Below, one piece after another: positions 4,137 through 31,078 of a DNA stretch of 64,000 nucleotides (the first letter of the stretch is position 1; every line of letters starts with the position of its first letter). The notes below the pieces were generated by a model. That model ran no database searches, had not been told where the DNA came from, and was given only the letters and a program-made list of their open reading frames with translations. Both the position numbers and the translations under genes were made by a program. The stretch is taken from contig CAZGFG010000005.1 of assembly GCA_964524895.1 (NCBI GenBank), forward strand, positions 5,976-69,975. Direction: 5' to 3'. The stretch is from an uncultured Gammaproteobacteria bacterium (GTDB lineage: Bacteria; Patescibacteriota; Microgenomatia; Daviesbacterales; UBA10151).

Positions 4137-4197
4137 GCGGCGGTAGTTCAGTGGTAGGCTAGTCTTCCAGACTGGTCCTGCCACTTCCTCCCTCCGC
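4137..4197 (+). pseudogene. tRNA-like fragment: degenerate duplicate of the 5' part of the adjacent tRNA-Gly
   Basis: First 21 nt (GCGGCGGTAGTTCAGTGGTAG) are identical to the start of tRNA-Gly 72 nt downstream. The remainder (GCTAGTCTTCCAGACTGGTCCTGCCACTTCCTCCCTCCGC) lacks a proper anticodon arm and T-arm. Confidence 0.5.
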
Positions 4198-4208
4198 TTG
4201 TTATACTC

Positions 4209-4280
4209 GCGGCGGTAGTTCAGTGGTAGAATGTCTCGTTGCCAACGAGAAGGTCGCCGGTCCAAATCCGGTCCGCCGCT
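4209..4280 (+). tRNA. tRNA-Gly (anticodon GCC)
   Basis: Acceptor GCGGCGG/CCGCCGC, D-arm GTTC-AGTGGTA-GAAT, anticodon stem TCTCG/CGAGA with loop TTGCCAA (GCC), T-loop TCCAAAT; 72 nt. Confidence 0.8.
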
Positions 4281-4308
4281 CTTATAATCCTGAGCGAAGT
4301 CGAAGGAC

Positions 4309-26629: not shown

Positions 26630-27400
26630 ATGAAAATTACCATCGGCTACTTATATCCAGATCTCATGAATATCTATGGTGATACCGGCAATATTATTGC
26701 CTTAAAAAAGAGGTCCCAATGGAGAGGAATAGAGGTTGAAGTTAGGTCAATAAACACCGGAGATGAACATAAGGCAAGTATAGTTGATCTCTACTTTTTT
26801 GGTGGAGGTCAGGACCAACAACAAGAGTTGGTAGCAGGAGACTTGGTAGAAAGTAGTAAGGGTAAGGTAATAAAACAGGATGTGGAAAGGGGGGTACCAC
26901 TGCTTTCTATTTGTGGGGGGTACCAGCTCCTGGGTGAATATTATCAACCTCACCAAGGAGCCAGATTAAAGGGGGTGGGGTTATTCCCAGCTTATACTGT
27001 GGCAAGTTACGACAGAATGATAGGCAACATAGTGATTAGGGTACAGGGTATAGGGTATAGTGATAAAAATACTAACCCCCAAACCCCAAACCCTAAACCC
27101 TACCTAGTTGGTTTTGAAAATCACTCCGGAAAGACTTATCTAAAATCGGGGGCACAACCCTTGGGAAAAGTTATTAAAGGTTTTGGTAATAATGGTGAGG
27201 ATCAAACAGAAGGCTGCATATACAAAAATGCCATCGGCTGCTATATGCACGGATCACTTCTGCCCAAAAATCCAAGGCTGACTGACTGGCTGCTTCAAAA
27301 AGCTTTAGAGGTAAAATATGGAAAAAAGATGGAGCTTGAGCCACTGGATGATTCCCTAGAAAACAAAGCCCACAAAACAATTATCAAGAGGCTTATTTAA
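26630..27400 (+). CDS. gatD: Lipid II isoglutaminyl synthase glutaminase subunit GatD (class I glutamine amidotransferase)
   Basis: SICGGYQLLG nucleophile-Cys elbow; ...CYMHGSLL His region; 256 aa; directly follows murT. Confidence 0.75.
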   Translation: MKITIGYLYPDLMNIYGDTGNIIALKKRSQWRGIEVEVRSINTGDEHKASIVDLYFFGGGQDQQQELVAGDLVESSKGKVIKQDVERGVPLLSICGGYQLLGEYYQPHQGARLKGVGLFPAYTVASYDRMIGNIVIRVQGIGYSDKNTNPQTPNPKPYLVGFENHSGKTYLKSGAQPLGKVIKGFGNNGEDQTEGCIYKNAIGCYMHGSLLPKNPRLTDWLLQKALEVKYGKKMELEPLDDSLENKAHKTIIKRLI

Positions 27401-27559
27401 TCACAGGTAACCACTACCGCTCTATAACCGTACCATCAAAACTACCTCTGTGATAAAATTACGTTACAAAATTGCTATGCAATTTTGAGAGGAGGAATCG
27501 CGAAAAAGTTCGAGTTGCGAGTATGCGAGTAACCGAACTTATAAAGCTAATTCCGACAT

Positions 27560-27642
27560 GGCCAAGTGGTGGAATGGTAGACACGCAGGATTTAGGATCC
27601 TGTGCTGGAAACAGCGTGGAGGTTCGAGTCCTCTCTTGGCCA
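27560..27642 (+). tRNA. tRNA-Leu (anticodon TAG), long variable arm
   Basis: GGCCAAG-TG-GTGG-AATGGTAG-ACAC-G-CAGGA-TTTAGGA-TCCTG-TGCTGGAAACAGCGT-GGAGG-TTCGAGT-CCTCT-CTTGGCC-A. Confidence 0.8.
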
Positions 27643-27682
27643 CACTAAAAATTGCAAGGTCCTAGGACCTATTGTCAGTAAT

Positions 27683-27714
27683 GACGTGCAGGTTCGAGTC
27701 CTGTCCCCGGCACA
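27683..27714 (+). repeat. tRNA 3'-end-like fragment (T-arm + acceptor-like) 40 nt downstream of tRNA-Leu(TAG), preceded by 12-nt palindrome GGTCCTAGGACC
   Basis: GACGTGCAGGTTCGAGTCCTGTCCCCGGCACA parallels the 3' end of the adjacent tRNA (GCGTGGAGGTTCGAGTCCTCTCTTGGCCACA); there is no matching 5' half. Confidence 0.4.
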
Positions 27715-27782
27715 AAATTTAAGGCATTCTTACCTGGTTTAATTTGACTTCTTGCATTAAAGTAGTAGAATTACACTCAATT

Positions 27783-28406
27783 ATGCCAGATTCTTCATCA
27801 CCTAAAACTAGAATATCTCCAGCCCAAGTCATAGGGGGAATCCCAGGCCTGATTGAAGGCGAGGATTGGGTAAAAAGCGGAGGACAGTTTATTAAAGAAT
27901 CACCGGGTGATTTTCTTGCTGCAACAGCAGATTTATTTAGTTTGGAAAAAACCACCCATGTCTCAAACCCTACACCGGAGCAATCCGTTGAAAGACCTAA
28001 AAGCTCTGGGACAATAGAGAATTTTAGTCAACCTCGGTTGGCACAAGAAACTAATCCACAGCTTGCTATTAACAAGCTGCAGGGGGAGCTGAAAGATGAA
28101 CATATGCAAACGATAACCCAGCAACCGGTGGAAGACAAAAGAATAAAAATTAATAGCCTGAACGATCTCCAAGCACTATATATGGGTAGTGTTGACAACG
28201 CTGGAAATGTTACCGCATACCATGGAGCTAATGCAGATAAAAAGCAGTTAGAACTGGAAGAGCAGCAAAGGGATGCAGATAGAGCAGAAGCATTCGCCCG
28301 GGCAACCAAAAAACAGGCTAAGGCAGATAATTCTATGAGGTTGGATGAACAGGAAGGTGCAAGTATGGTTTCTTCCGGTGGTGCTGCAGCAGGAAGAGTA
28401 GGCTAA
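27783..28406 (+). CDS. Hypothetical protein, low-complexity/Q- and A-rich, between two tRNA loci
   Basis: Track start 27744 is TTG; ATG at 27783. No domain recognised. Confidence 0.35.
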   Translation: MPDSSSPKTRISPAQVIGGIPGLIEGEDWVKSGGQFIKESPGDFLAATADLFSLEKTTHVSNPTPEQSVERPKSSGTIENFSQPRLAQETNPQLAINKLQGELKDEHMQTITQQPVEDKRIKINSLNDLQALYMGSVDNAGNVTAYHGANADKKQLELEEQQRDADRAEAFARATKKQAKADNSMRLDEQEGASMVSSGGAAAGRVG

Positions 28407-28458
28407 TCTCCTCCTTGCCTAGAATAAATCACTCCTATAACTTAAAATAATCAAGTTT

Positions 28459-28482
28459 GGGCAGTTAGCTCAGTTGGTAGAG
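28459..28482 (+). repeat. Copy of tRNA 5' half (acceptor + D-arm) forming a direct repeat with tRNA-Val(GAC) ~750 nt downstream
   Basis: GGGCAGTTAGCTCAGTTGGTAGAG versus GGGCGGTTAGCTCAGTTGGTAGAG (23/24); homology continues weakly to the anticodon loop (CTTGA) and then stops. Confidence 0.55.
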
Positions 28483-28521
28483 AGACTACTTGAATATTTC
28501 GAACCCCACTATTATACTTGG

Positions 28522-29241
28522 TCCATGAAATCTAAATGGTACGGGTTTAAACCACAAGCAATAGAGTTGCGAAGAAATGGGAACTCATTAAGAAATGTGG
28601 CAAAAGTCTTAAATATTCCTAAATCTACTCTCAGCGGATGGTTCAGAGACATTACACTAACTCCTGAACAACAACTAGTTTTGAGAAAAAACTGGCTCGA
28701 GAACCTAAGAAATGCTAGAAGAAAGGCGGTAGTTTGGCATAACCAGCAAAAAGTGGCCCGACTAAAAGAAGCTGAGCAGTTAGCAATGAAGACGTTAGAA
28801 AGTATCAATATTAGCAACTTGAATATCTTAGAGCTTGCTTTAGCTATGTTATACCTAGCCGAGGGAGCAAAATCAGCAGGAACACTCCTAGGCAACTCTG
28901 ATCCCTTAATCCTTAAATTCTTTGTGGCAGCTCTTGAAGGTGTTTATTGTATCGATGTTAGCAAAATATCAGCCGAACTCCATTTAAGAGCAGACCAAAA
29001 TCCAGAAGAGATGAAAAGATACTGGTCTCGGGAGTTAAATCTCCCTCTAGATAACTTTAAATCTGTAAGTATTGACAAAAGAACTGCTGGATCACCCACA
29101 TATCCTACCTATAAAGGGGTCTGTGTGTTGTACTGCGGTAATATTGCTCTTCAACGAAGATTAGTGTATCTTAGTAGAGGTTTCTGCGAGAAAATTGCTA
29201 ACCTAAGGGCGGTTAGCTCAGTTGGTAGAGCGTCCGCTTGA
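28522..29241 (+). CDS. HTH + LAGLIDADG-like homing endonuclease candidate (single-motif type)
   Basis: N-terminal HTH (NVAKVLNIPKSTLSGWF); ELALAMLYLAEGAKS resembles the LAGLIDADG motif variant GLYVAEGDK (as in I-DmoI motif 2), followed by ~115 aa, the length of a homodimeric LAGLIDADG core. The ORF begins inside the tRNA 5'-half copy (track TTG at 28474; first ATG 28522) and terminates at a TGA inside the anticodon loop of tRNA-Val. Confidence 0.45.
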   Translation, partial: SMKSKWYGFKPQAIELRRNGNSLRNVAKVLNIPKSTLSGWFRDITLTPEQQLVLRKNWLENLRNARRKAVVWHNQQKVARLKEAEQLAMKTLESINISNLNILELALAMLYLAEGAKSAGTLLGNSDPLILKFFVAALEGVYCIDVSKISAELHLRADQNPEEMKRYWSRELNLPLDNFKSVSIDKRTAGSPTYPTYKGVCVLYCGNIALQRRLVYLSRGFCEKIANLRAVSSVGRASA

Positions 29242-29280
29242 CGTGCGGAAGGTTCACAGGTTCGAGCCCTGTACCGCCCA
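29207..29280 (+). tRNA. tRNA-Val (anticodon GAC)
   Basis: Acceptor GGGCGGT/ACCGCCC, anticodon stem TCCGC/GCGGA with loop TTGACGT (GAC), T-arm ACAGG-TTCGAGC-CCTGT. Confidence 0.8.
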
Positions 29281-29378
29281 CTAGAGGTTCAATTCCTACA
29301 CAGTCGGAGGGTTTATTGTCCTCTCGAGTCCACACACCTCTTTACACATTCTCTACCTCTTAGGTATGATAAATACTA

Positions 29379-29627
29379 GTGGAAGAAAGCACTCCTCAAA
29401 TTGAGAAACACTTAACAGCCGGGATGAATTTAAAAAAGCGCCAGATTATTGTTGCCAACTTTTTAGGAGGAATTGCTTGGGGAGTGGGTACGGTAATTGG
29501 GGCAACAGTGGTAGTAGCCCTATTCTTCTCCCTAATTAGGGTTTTCAATTTTTTGCCTTTAGTCGGAGACTTAACAAAACAGCTGCCGGAGTCCGGCAAT
29601 ACCAGAAGTATTCAACTAAACAGATAA
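29379..29627 (+). CDS. Small membrane protein (hypothetical)
   Basis: 82 aa with one long hydrophobic segment (IIVANFLGGIAWGVGTVIGATVVVALFFSLI). Confidence 0.35.
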   Translation: MEESTPQIEKHLTAGMNLKKRQIIVANFLGGIAWGVGTVIGATVVVALFFSLIRVFNFLPLVGDLTKQLPESGNTRSIQLNR

Positions 29628-29833
29628 TCAATTGACAATCTGTCCAGCAATATCTAAACTATACTTGAAAGCATTGATGAAGACTCACCAACTTCGGAGC
29701 TTTCCGCCAGAATCTGCGTTAAGATCAAAGAGTCATCCAAAGGATGATCAGCCTTTGGCTGAAAATAAAGGGTGGAACCGCCCAATCCGGGCCCCTAAGA
29801 ATATCATTGGATATATCTTGAGGGGCTTTTAAA

Positions 29834-31078
29834 ATGGATAAAAATATGAAAGATCATAAACAAATAGGTCAAGAGTTGGAGTTATTCTTTACGGATGATA
29901 TTGCCCCTGGGGCTCCTTTTTGGCTTCCAAAGGGAATGGTCATTTTTAAAGAGCTAGAGAAATTCATCCGAGAATTAACTTTAAAGGCAGGTTACCAGGA
30001 AACCTCTACTCCGATAATGGTCAAAAGTGAACTATTTAAACAATCCGGCCACTGGGAAAAATTCGGTGAACACAATATGTACAATCTGGCACTCTATGAA
30101 GATGAGGAGATAGCCAAAGGTAAAGAGCAGGAGTTACCTCAAGCTAATTACTCTCTAAAACCTATGAACTGCCCGGAGTCAACAATTCTCTATCGATTCC
30201 GTCCCAGAAGCTATCGGGAATTACCTCTACGTTATGCCGAAATAGGACGTCTTCACCGAAGGGAAAAATCCGGAGAAGTAAACGGATTATTACGGGTGCG
30301 GCAAATCACTATGGATGATGCCCATATTTATACTAGAGAGGATCAAATTTTTGAGGAGGTTTCCAAGATTTTAGACATGATGACCGATTTTTATAAAAGG
30401 TTTGGTTTAGAGTATGAATTTAGATTTGCTACCAGACCGGAGCAACGGGCCGGAACAGATCAGATGTGGGACAAAGCAGAGGAAGAACTGGCTGAAGCTT
30501 TAAAGAAAAAAGGTATCAGAGCAGGTGATAAAAAGGGTGATGGTGCTTTTTATGGTCCAAAAATCGATATGCATATTAAAGATTCTCTAGATAGAGAATG
30601 GCAGTTGGCAACAGTTCAGTTAGATTTTCATATGCCTCAAGCCTTTGATTTAAAATACACGGATGAAAAGGGTGAGCAGCAAAGACCGGTGATGATCCAC
30701 AGGGCTATTTTTGGCTCCTTTGAAAGGTTTATCGGTATACTGACAGAACACTTCCAGGGGGCCTTTCCTGCCTGGCTTGCGCCTGTTCAGGTACAAATTG
30801 TACCCATTTCAGAAAAGCAGAAAGAATATGGACAAAAATTACTCGAACAATTAAATGATGCAGAAATAAGAGCGGAGCTAGATGATAGATCAGAAACCAT
30901 GCAGGCAAAAATCAGGAATGCCCAACTACAAAAAATTCCTTATATGCTAATTATTGGAGAAAGGGAACAGGCAGATAACACGGTTTCGGTGCGTACCAGG
31001 GACGAGCAAAATTTAGGTGCAATAGGTTTTAATGACTTTTTGAGTCAAATCAAACAGGCAATTGAATCAAAAAAGTAA
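29834..31078 (+). CDS. thrS: Threonine--tRNA ligase, catalytic + anticodon-binding domains only (N-terminal TGS/editing domains absent)
   Basis: Begins KDHKQIGQELELFF...PKGMVIFKELE, corresponding to the start of the E. coli ThrRS catalytic domain (RDHRKIGKQLDLYH...). Class II motifs present; 414 aa versus ~640 for full-length bacterial ThrRS. Confidence 0.85.
   Translation: MDKNMKDHKQIGQELELFFTDDIAPGAPFWLPKGMVIFKELEKFIRELTLKAGYQETSTPIMVKSELFKQSGHWEKFGEHNMYNLALYEDEEIAKGKEQELPQANYSLKPMNCPESTILYRFRPRSYRELPLRYAEIGRLHRREKSGEVNGLLRVRQITMDDAHIYTREDQIFEEVSKILDMMTDFYKRFGLEYEFRFATRPEQRAGTDQMWDKAEEELAEALKKKGIRAGDKKGDGAFYGPKIDMHIKDSLDREWQLATVQLDFHMPQAFDLKYTDEKGEQQRPVMIHRAIFGSFERFIGILTEHFQGAFPAWLAPVQVQIVPISEKQKEYGQKLLEQLNDAEIRAELDDRSETMQAKIRNAQLQKIPYMLIIGEREQADNTVSVRTRDEQNLGAIGFNDFLSQIKQAIESKK

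Follow-up and report, generated by a model that had tools for sequence, protein, structure and literature searches.

The window analysed here, a stretch of 64,000 nt from contig CAZGFG010000005.1 (assembly GCA_964524895.1), contains a tRNA-Val(GAC) gene preceded by an open reading frame (ORF) for a 238-aa protein and, upstream of both, by a second copy of the 5' part of a tRNA-Val gene. We conclude that this locus is very probably a mobile cassette that has replaced the resident tRNA-Val(GAC) gene. The cassette is about 0.79 kb long and is composed, in order, of a conserved promoter spacer with a -10 box, an apparently leaderless ORF and a complete tRNA-Val(GAC) gene (Table 1). A first-pass annotation of this DNA had proposed a mobile, ORF-bearing insert at the anticodon-loop position of the tRNA-Val(GAC) gene, and this proposal is borne out by the colinearity with an unoccupied locus and by the distribution of empty sites presented below. 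The best overall explanation available to us, a tRNA-replacement cassette whose ORF product would be the mobility enzyme, is one to which we give about even weight.

Table 1. Features of the tRNA-Val(GAC) locus in the window
Feature	Position	Strand	Remarks
Promoter-like sequence of the disrupted resident tRNA-Val gene	28415..28443	+	TTGCCT, 17 nt, TAACTT, then ~15 nt leader
5' stump of the resident tRNA-Val(GAC), positions 1-36	28459..28494	+	C25>A, C36>A
Cassette promoter	28490..28518	+	-35 TTGAAT (28490-28495), 17-nt spacer, -10 TATACT (28513-28518)
Cassette left end (promoter spacer)	28496..28512	+	consensus ATTCGTACCACTGAT; candidate operator or end-recognition site
ORF, 238 aa + stop	28525..29241	+	N-terminal helix-turn-helix, long helix, C-terminal alpha/beta domain
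Complete tRNA-Val(GAC) of the cassette	29207..29281	+	overlaps the last 35 nt of the ORF; ARAGORN, Rfam
Possible decayed 3' remnant of the resident tRNA, T-arm-like AGAGGTTCAATTCCTACAC	29283..29310	+	marginal

Two tRNA-Val sequences at one locus

The downstream tRNA-Val(GAC), which looks functional from its sequence, was called both by ARAGORN, a check that the first-pass annotation had suggested, and by Rfam (66 bits). The upstream segment GGGCAGTTAGCTCAGTTGGTAGAG (28459-28482) agrees with positions 1-24 of this tRNA at 23 of 24 nucleotides, as had been noticed from the outset, and 100 dinucleotide shuffles of the window yielded no such match to the tRNA start. Beyond this segment positions 25-30 differ, CTTGA (31-35) is common to the two copies and the similarity is over at position 36, so the homology does end in the anticodon loop as first described. 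The upstream copy had also been taken for a duplicate of the intact gene's own 5' half, and this part of the annotation did not survive comparison with L094, a related locus at which the tRNA is intact and the ORF is absent. Window positions 28330-28494 are colinear with L094, starting in the last part of the upstream gene and continuing across the promoter region as far as tRNA position 35; the colinearity stops after CTTGA, where the window runs into the cassette. The last position of the resident tRNA before the cassette is 35/36, in the anticodon. Positions 1-24 of the window stump match the intact L094 tRNA at 24 of 24 nucleotides, including the diagnostic A5. The acceptor stem of the window's functional tRNA (GGGCGGT/ACCGCCC) differs on both strands from that of L094 (GGGCAGT/ACTGCCC). 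From the identity of the stump with the L094 tRNA, and from the acceptor strands of the functional tRNA, neither of which agrees with L094, we conclude that the upstream copy is the 5' stump of the orthologous resident tRNA, and that the tRNA after the ORF belongs to another sequence type and was imported whole. The region 28415-28443 aligns colinearly with the DNA upstream of the intact L094 tRNA and may have served as the promoter of the resident gene; a consensus promoter scan did not list it. Empty sites possess promoter-like sequences of their own, such as TTGAAT-17-TACAAT in L094, followed by a leader of about 20 nt.

The frequency of unoccupied sites was determined with the 82-aa membrane protein encoded just downstream (29379-29627) as query, which gave 80 related metagenomic loci. 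A site was counted as empty only if it contained tRNA-Val(GAC), had sufficient flank to be judged and lacked the ORF. In the same synteny the ORF was present next to tRNA-Val(GAC) at 5 sites, and 37 assessable sites were empty, an occupancy of 12%; the membrane-protein gene also lies downstream of the cassette in several filled loci. There is therefore a presence/absence polymorphism at one conserved target among related genomes. The comparison of relatives that the first-pass annotation had called for thus showed the insert to be polymorphic; the 5' copy, however, is the resident stump and no duplication is involved.

Comparable arrangements are present at other loci. In L001 the stump GGACTCGTAGCTCAGT(T)TGGTAGAGCGACCCCTTGAC corresponds to positions 1-36 of the tRNA that is intact at the empty sites L126 and L132, and its homology stops exactly after C36; the functional tRNA of L001 is of the GGGCGGT type. 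In L069 the last 15 nt of a GCGCGxT-type tRNA, TCCTGTATCGCGCAC, are preserved without mismatch 12 nt after the locus's GGGCGGT-type tRNA (0/2000 shuffles), and an 11-nt match to the GCGCGxT-type 5' end lies about 80 nt upstream of the ORF. At all three of these loci (the window, L001 and L069) the resident tRNA gene has been broken without being restored, and the element carries a complete tRNA with the same anticodon. The stumps in L005 and L020 are closer to tRNA-Val types of other loci than to their own neighbor. In L064, L078, L002 and L083, which are closely related to the window, everything between the upstream stop codon and the -35 box is gone.

Horizontal movement was assessed with one host marker, the flanking membrane protein, at few loci. 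Between L064 and L083 this protein is 88% identical, the ORF products are 62-63% identical and the tRNAs 83%, whereas the best matches of L083, for both the ORF (69%) and the tRNA (96%), are in L005. L064 and L084 likewise share 88% identity in the membrane protein and 79% in the tRNA, and L084 is empty. The ORF family is rare and yet is found in very distant lineages of the Candidate Phyla Radiation (CPR). These sequence comparisons support horizontal spread of the cassette. A global comparison of ORF identity with tRNA identity was uninformative (Spearman ~0).

The ORF, its promoter and its protein product

A scan for the ORF in one genome per species (185,579 species genomes) gave 190 tblastn-confirmed stretches, the best 80 of which were kept as loci. 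In 77 of these 80, ARAGORN placed tRNA-Val(GAC) directly 3' of the ORF; Rfam adds a tRNA at L015 and the start of a tRNA at the contig end of L057, and the last locus stops at a contig edge. The surroundings vary: Ile(tat)-ORF-Val(gac)-Leu-Val(tac)-Phe-Gly, Thr-Thr-ORF-Val-Trp, ORF-Val-Met and ORF-Val-Pro are all represented, and one metagenomic locus has the ORF and its tRNA turned around together with respect to the adjacent genes. Because the linkage is universal while the contexts differ, the ORF tracks the tRNA and not the neighborhood.

The association extends to distant relatives. An exhaustive search with a profile of the C-terminal domain, clustered at 50% identity, gave a superfamily of 2318 clusters at E<=0.001 and 610 at E<=1e-10, and fifteen distant members were looked up. 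Some adjoin tRNA-Val(GAC) (P0186, P0204, P0307), others tRNA-Ala(GGC) on the same strand (P0200, P0207, P0219, P0239) or, in converging orientation, on the opposite strand (P0233), and one adjoins tRNA-Ile(UAU) (P0312). For P0178 and P0193 the contig ends inside tRNA 5' sequence, and for P0311 no DNA was returned. The superfamily as a whole is thus linked to tRNA genes, and its partners include at least three different tRNAs. In L169 (1501-2280) a distant member converges on an opposite-strand tRNA-Ala(GGC), which the 3' end of its ORF overlaps, and therefore the polarity of ORF followed by tRNA is not universal in the superfamily.

In the window the long frame of the ORF extends from 28474 to 29241, with the conserved start at the ATG at 28525. 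As the first-pass annotation stated, the ORF fills the interval between the two tRNA sequences and terminates inside the anticodon loop, its TGA (29239-29241) being U33-G34-A35 of the intact tRNA. In 77 homologous loci, however, the start of the tRNA varies between 32 nt upstream and 55 nt downstream of the point where the protein match ends, and the position of the stop codon is therefore incidental and not a conserved feature.

Alignment of 77 loci on the start codon (ATG at 0) revealed a TTG at -35 to -33, a conserved spacer, ATTCGTACCACTGAT, and TATAAT at -12 to -7. Conservation of the spacer columns reaches 82% over loci from very different hosts, which is far beyond what a promoter spacer needs and may reflect a role as an operator or in recognition of the cassette end. 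In the window a consensus scan called TTGAAT(28490)-17-TATACT(28518), with 9/12 matches, and this -35 box is made of stump anticodon-loop positions 32-36 plus the first base of the cassette. L001 also uses the anticodon loop of its stump as a -35 box, with the same register to the -10 box and the ATG. The gap from the -10 box to the ATG is only 6 nt and no Shine-Dalgarno sequence is present, from which a leaderless mRNA is to be expected. There is little or no space between ORF and tRNA for a separate tRNA promoter, and promoter-like scores upstream of the ORF-linked tRNAs fall below those of the ORF promoter; the ORF and the tRNA are likely to be co-transcribed from the cassette promoter. The spacer also resembles an inverted D-arm (TACCACTGA vs TCAGTGGTA) and a T-loop (TTCGxACC), a resemblance that is unproven, with a mean per-locus similarity score to the tRNA just slightly above that of shuffled sequences (5.9 vs 5.1) and 27% of loci above the 95th percentile. 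A search for decayed cassette promoters at empty sites by regular expression found none, with a pattern that was too strict.

Two further observations concern these upstream regions. In 24 of the 80 loci (e.g. L009, L018, L033, L004, L014, L025) a DnaA-box-like 9-mer, TGTGGATAA or TTATCCACA with <=1 mismatch, is located about 50 nt upstream of the ORF start, just 5' of the -35 box and in either orientation, over a background of 0.35 per kb; such boxes also occur in the leaders of some empty-site tRNA-Val genes, e.g. TTATCCAAA in L094, and there are none in the window. The neighboring membrane-protein gene has a promoter-like TTTACA-18-TATGAT (29341-29370) 8 nt before its GTG start, and in its relatives in L064, L078 and L084 TGTGATAAT stands immediately 5' of the ATG, so leaderless starts may be common in these genomes.

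The protein has 1552 homologues in the databases, about 225-240 aa in length and 50-65% identical, all of them unnamed or hypothetical; those with organism names are from the CPR (e.g. Daviesbacteria, Microgenomates, Blackburnbacteria, Wolfebacteria). Literature searches found no description of the family or of the arrangement. The layout of the protein comprises a transposase-type helix-turn-helix (HTH) at aa 11-41 (nt 28555-28647), a long helix at aa 47-93 and an alpha/beta domain at aa 95-232 (nt 28807-29220). The HTH, already recognized in the first-pass annotation, is weak in the single sequence (HTH_23, E 0.0011, aa 11-41) but consistent across the family, with HTH_SB found in 27 and HTH_23 in 23 of the 30 members examined with Pfam. 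Pfam, NCBIfam and PHROGs detected only HTH domains of the transposase/resolvase kind (HTH_SB, HTH_23, HTH_7, IS3/IS1 N-termini), and neither these collections nor the PDB structure search revealed a recognizable integrase or recombinase. AlphaFold models of the full-length protein and of residues 95-232 had confidence (pLDDT, predicted local distance difference test) values of 92.6 and 93.9, respectively. In these predictions the HTH is followed by a helix of 45 residues and an alpha/beta domain whose elements are ordered a-b-a-b-a-b-b-a. Across the superfamily, at 28-40% identity, G114, W167, D184, R186, Y196 and G198 are invariant and E113, K116, P127, R155, D157, Q158 and C200 nearly so, a pattern that looks like an active site. 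PADLOC reported no defence-system match and IMG/VR viral contigs contained no relatives, and a defence or phage origin has no support.

Other truncated tRNA sequences were encountered in the course of this work. At 4137-4200 of the window, 8 nt after a tRNA-Phe, GCGGCGGTAGTTCAGTGGTAG is identical at 21/21 positions to the start of tRNA-Gly(GCC) (4209-4281) and is followed by an anticodon-arm-like hairpin, CTAGT-CTTCCAG-ACTGG (anticodon TCC), with no T arm and no ARAGORN call. This may be another 5' fragment of a tRNA, or else a tRNA-Gly(UCC) in decay, ahead of an intact tRNA and with no ORF. In L026 (1610-1820) truncated tRNA 5' fragments (GGACGGTTAGCTCAG..., GGACGATTAGCTCAG...), each followed by a repeat of about 60 nt (GTGGGCGAAACG...CGTTTCGCGGGA), form a series ahead of an intact tRNA-Val(TAC), and the repeat has the appearance of a small element that, with no ORF of its own, likewise truncates genes for tRNAs. 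In L115 and L116 the intact tRNA-Val(GAC) is followed 18 nt on by a 3'-half fragment, GTCGCAAAGGTCACAGGTTCGACTCCTGTACCACCCACCA, as is typically left where an element of the integrase type has used this tRNA; there is no ORF of the family studied here. Downstream of the locus in the window, a weak match to a T-box leader (29665-29799; 41 bits, gathering score 93) precedes a 414-aa ORF (29834-31078) for a putative threonyl-tRNA synthetase.

Proposed mechanism and competing explanations

The mechanism that we propose may be stated as follows. The transposase-like HTH would bind tRNA-Val gene DNA and also the conserved spacer of its own promoter, in the latter case bringing about autoregulation, and the C-terminal domain (D184, R186, Y196; E113, K116, R155, D157) would break DNA near the anticodon loop. 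Repair of this break would copy in the cassette from donor DNA, with the two halves of the tRNA gene serving as the sole homology arms common to unrelated genomes. Because tRNA genes are the only long sequences common to distant genomes, a mobile element could in this way cross deep phylogenetic distances with arms of about 35-40 bp. The resident tRNA-Val(GAC) gene is probably single-copy and essential, and the spare tRNA on board, which RNase P would release from the co-transcript, would make insertion survivable. After fixation the stumps would decay or be deleted, which we propose as the reason that most loci have none. Recombination stimulated by an endonuclease, as in homing, is the favored route because the stumps are of the recipient's own type and because the window stump looks chimeric, being perfect for positions 1-24 and poor for 25-30; a chimeric stump would fit a homologous crossover between the recipient tRNA and the donor's old stump. 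That the cassette protein is an endonuclease driving such homing-like spread is a tentative proposal, which we rate at somewhat less than an even chance. Much the same tentativeness attaches to the wider proposal that the family belongs to an unrecognised superfamily of tRNA-gene-specific mobility enzymes, carried by knock-out-and-replace cassettes of the CPR, in which each subfamily would be dedicated to one tRNA (Val-GAC, Ala-GGC, Ile-UAU), would break its gene in the anticodon loop and would supply its own copy, using the TTGAC of the broken loop as a -35 box in the Val case.

Several observations weigh against this interpretation. A recognisable 5' stump is present in only about 8 of about 85 filled loci, and some Parcubacteria stumps are separated from the -35 box by 15-30 extra nt, so that the junction is not uniform. 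The 3' remnant in the window is marginal: in a comparison of 29283-29310 with 122 tRNA-Val 3' halves the score is 16 (null maximum 14), and against the 3' half of L094 alone the match is not significant, 405/2000 shuffles reaching its score. The L001 3' remnant is also not significant against the expected resident type, and only that of L069 is clean. No terminal repeats, inverted or direct, and no target-site duplication were found, and the right junction lacks definition. Weak promoter-like sites may lie within the 3' end of the ORF and would bear on co-transcription. An immunity polymorphism was sought, and no consistent difference distinguished ORF-linked from empty-site tRNA-Val(GAC) genes; an enzyme that cuts anticodon-loop DNA should also cut the tRNA gene of the cassette, and this question of self-immunity is the chief difficulty of the model. 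The C-terminal domain, as modelled, has no convincing structural match among solved structures that would indicate its fold or catalysis: Foldseek searches of the PDB with both models returned nothing at E<0.001, with a best template-modelling (TM) score of 0.39 and OmpA-like and IspF proteins as top matches. Finally, the absence of relatives among viral contigs means that no vector has been found.

Some of these difficulties would disappear if the cassette were real and its protein merely a passenger, that is, a transcription factor that autoregulates its promoter and controls tRNA-Val(GAC) output, the cassette being spread by DNA uptake and homologous recombination with no dedicated nuclease. 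The missing immunity polymorphism would be harmless if nothing were cut, no nuclease or recombinase fold has been recognized, the promoter spacer is conserved like an operator and the tRNA probably depends on the promoter of the ORF. A 130-aa C-terminal domain in which E, K, R, D, Q, D, R and Y are invariant or nearly so over a superfamily at 28-40% identity nevertheless looks enzymatic, and a passenger regulator provides no reason for the repeated site-specific capture of three different tRNA genes or for a sporadic occupancy of 12%. We regard it as unlikely.

We give a similarly low probability to the protein being a new type of site-specific recombinase or transposase, one that would release the cassette as a small circle and insert it into the anticodon loop (attB) in the manner of tRNA-targeting integrases, and not by way of double-strand-break repair. 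Anticodon loops are well known as att cores (Islander, PMC4383910), the left junction is exact and recurs at the same point, after C36, in the window and in L001, and the left-end sequence is conserved; moreover the N-terminal HTH is transposase- or resolvase-like, Y196 is invariant and R155, R186 and K116 are conserved. On the other hand, the protein bears no likeness to tyrosine or serine recombinases or to DDE or HUH transposases, there are no inverted terminal repeats and the similarity of the spacer to the tRNA barely exceeds that of shuffles. At the right junction no repeated core or target duplication is visible; a displaced 5' fragment is present at the other end, but the tRNA has been imported, not regenerated. 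The chimeric window stump is also better explained by a homologous crossover.

The first-pass annotation had assigned the ORF to the LAGLIDADG homing endonucleases, inserted like an intron in the anticodon loop with a duplicated 5' exon half, and this we now consider quite improbable. The insertion point was correct. In the motif LAMLYLxEGxK a conserved acidic residue closes helix 1, as happens in LAGLIDADG motifs, and the best geometric match in BFVD is a Bodo saltans virus 'Homing endonuclease', which is weak (TM 0.42, root-mean-square deviation 3.5 A, E 0.31), with a LAGLIDADG entry at rank 47. Membership in the family was nevertheless not supported. The Pfam profiles LAGLIDADG_1, _2 and _3 did not match the window protein or any of the 30 members at E up to 10, hhalign against I-CreI gave a probability of 0.2%, sequence searches of the PDB with the single protein and with a profile provided no support, and no LAGLIDADG chain was among the top 50 PDB Foldseek matches of either confident model, the predicted topology of which seems to differ from the a-b-b-a-b-b-a of that family. 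In addition, the downstream tRNA is complete and of a foreign type, so that splicing is not needed, and the 5' copy is the resident stump. A bona fide LAGLIDADG_3 domain is present in the intein of an FtsH gene in L173 (1-1816), adjoining a superfamily member linked to tRNA-Ile(UAU); such domains are therefore readily seen by Pfam in this setting, unlike anything in the ORF under study. The annotation was right to exclude a group I intron: Rfam found none in 27000-30500 at E up to 10, and the insert precedes a full tRNA and not a 3' half. The least tenable alternative, an ordinary vertical operon of a regulator and tRNA-Val in which the 24-mer is a local partial tandem duplication or chance pseudogene, draws on the universal linkage and the conserved promoter but was rejected as a conserved operon in view of the 37 empty and 5 filled sites in the same synteny, and it is contradicted further by close hosts that carry divergent ORFs or none, by a stump that matches the tRNA of the resident lineage and not the adjacent one, and by the rarity of the family (190 stretches in the 185,579 genomes), and we consider it highly improbable.

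Comparison with known systems

If the replacement cassette is as proposed, a hypothetical family (1552 homologues, in a superfamily of 2318 clusters at 50% identity) acquires a concrete and testable role. Genes for tRNA-Val(GAC) may then move horizontally, which matters where tRNA sequences or synteny are used as markers, and insertion of the cassette may explain truncated tRNA fragments in CPR genomes. Should the protein prove to be a sequence-specific DNA enzyme of new fold, it would be a candidate targeting enzyme. It was of interest to compare the cassette with systems that have similar properties, although the defining proteins or RNAs of those systems are all absent from it.

I-TevI is a bipartite homing endonuclease: a long linker connects its catalytic domain to a DNA-binding domain of the HTH type, and the enzyme represses its own promoter through an operator. 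The cassette protein has a comparable layout, with an HTH and a putative catalytic domain set apart by a long connector, and the conserved promoter sequence could be its operator. Its domain order, however, is reversed, and the putative catalytic domain appears unrelated to GIY-YIG. Free-standing homing endonuclease genes, such as T4 seg and mob (reviewed in PMC2988022; SegB is in a tRNA gene cluster, PMC13096335), resemble the cassette in being small selfish genes beside their target that are copied with flanks into alleles lacking them (PMC2988022), with sporadic presence and absence and decaying relics. They differ in that the known families are GIY-YIG, HNH, LAGLIDADG, His-Cys box, PD-(D/E)XK and EDxHD, none of which was detected here; in that they neither interrupt an essential gene nor supply a substitute for it; and in that their carriers are immune through target polymorphism, which was not seen for the cassette.

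In the tRNA-dependent lysogeny of actinobacteriophages (Guerrero-Bustamante and Hatfull 2024, PMC10865867), as in the cassette, a host tRNA gene is hit and not rebuilt, and a complete tRNA of the same isotype on the element compensates. Those elements are whole phages of tens of kb with a tyrosine integrase and a core of about 10 bp, whereas the cassette has 0.8 kb, a single unclassified protein and no phage genes; it also carries its spare tRNA right at the junction and re-uses the broken anticodon loop as a -35 box. Islands and prophages with tyrosine integrases (Islander, PMC4383910) target tRNA genes too, often at the anticodon loop, and leave a displaced tRNA fragment at one end. They restore the 3' part of the gene and leave a 3' fragment at the far end, whereas the cassette displaces the 5' part and supplies a whole tRNA plus a new promoter, with no integrase.

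Group I introns with homing endonucleases in the anticodon loops of bacterial tRNAs (PMC3984707) share the insertion position and the carriage of an ORF, but the cassette has no ribozyme core (Rfam) and no 3' exon, and it works by replacement and not by splicing. LAGLIDADG insertions in CPR rRNA genes (PMC11270868) are selfish ORFs in structural-RNA genes of the same organism group, and differ in the protein family, in the target, which here is a tRNA gene, and in the way that the host gene is spared. As a whole, the known ways of sparing an essential gene that has been invaded are splicing, as practiced by introns and inteins, and rebuilding of the gene end, as practiced by integrases. If our interpretation of the locus is correct, replacement by an on-board copy would be a third way, of which the cassette (0.8 kb, one protein) is, to our knowledge, the smallest autonomous example.

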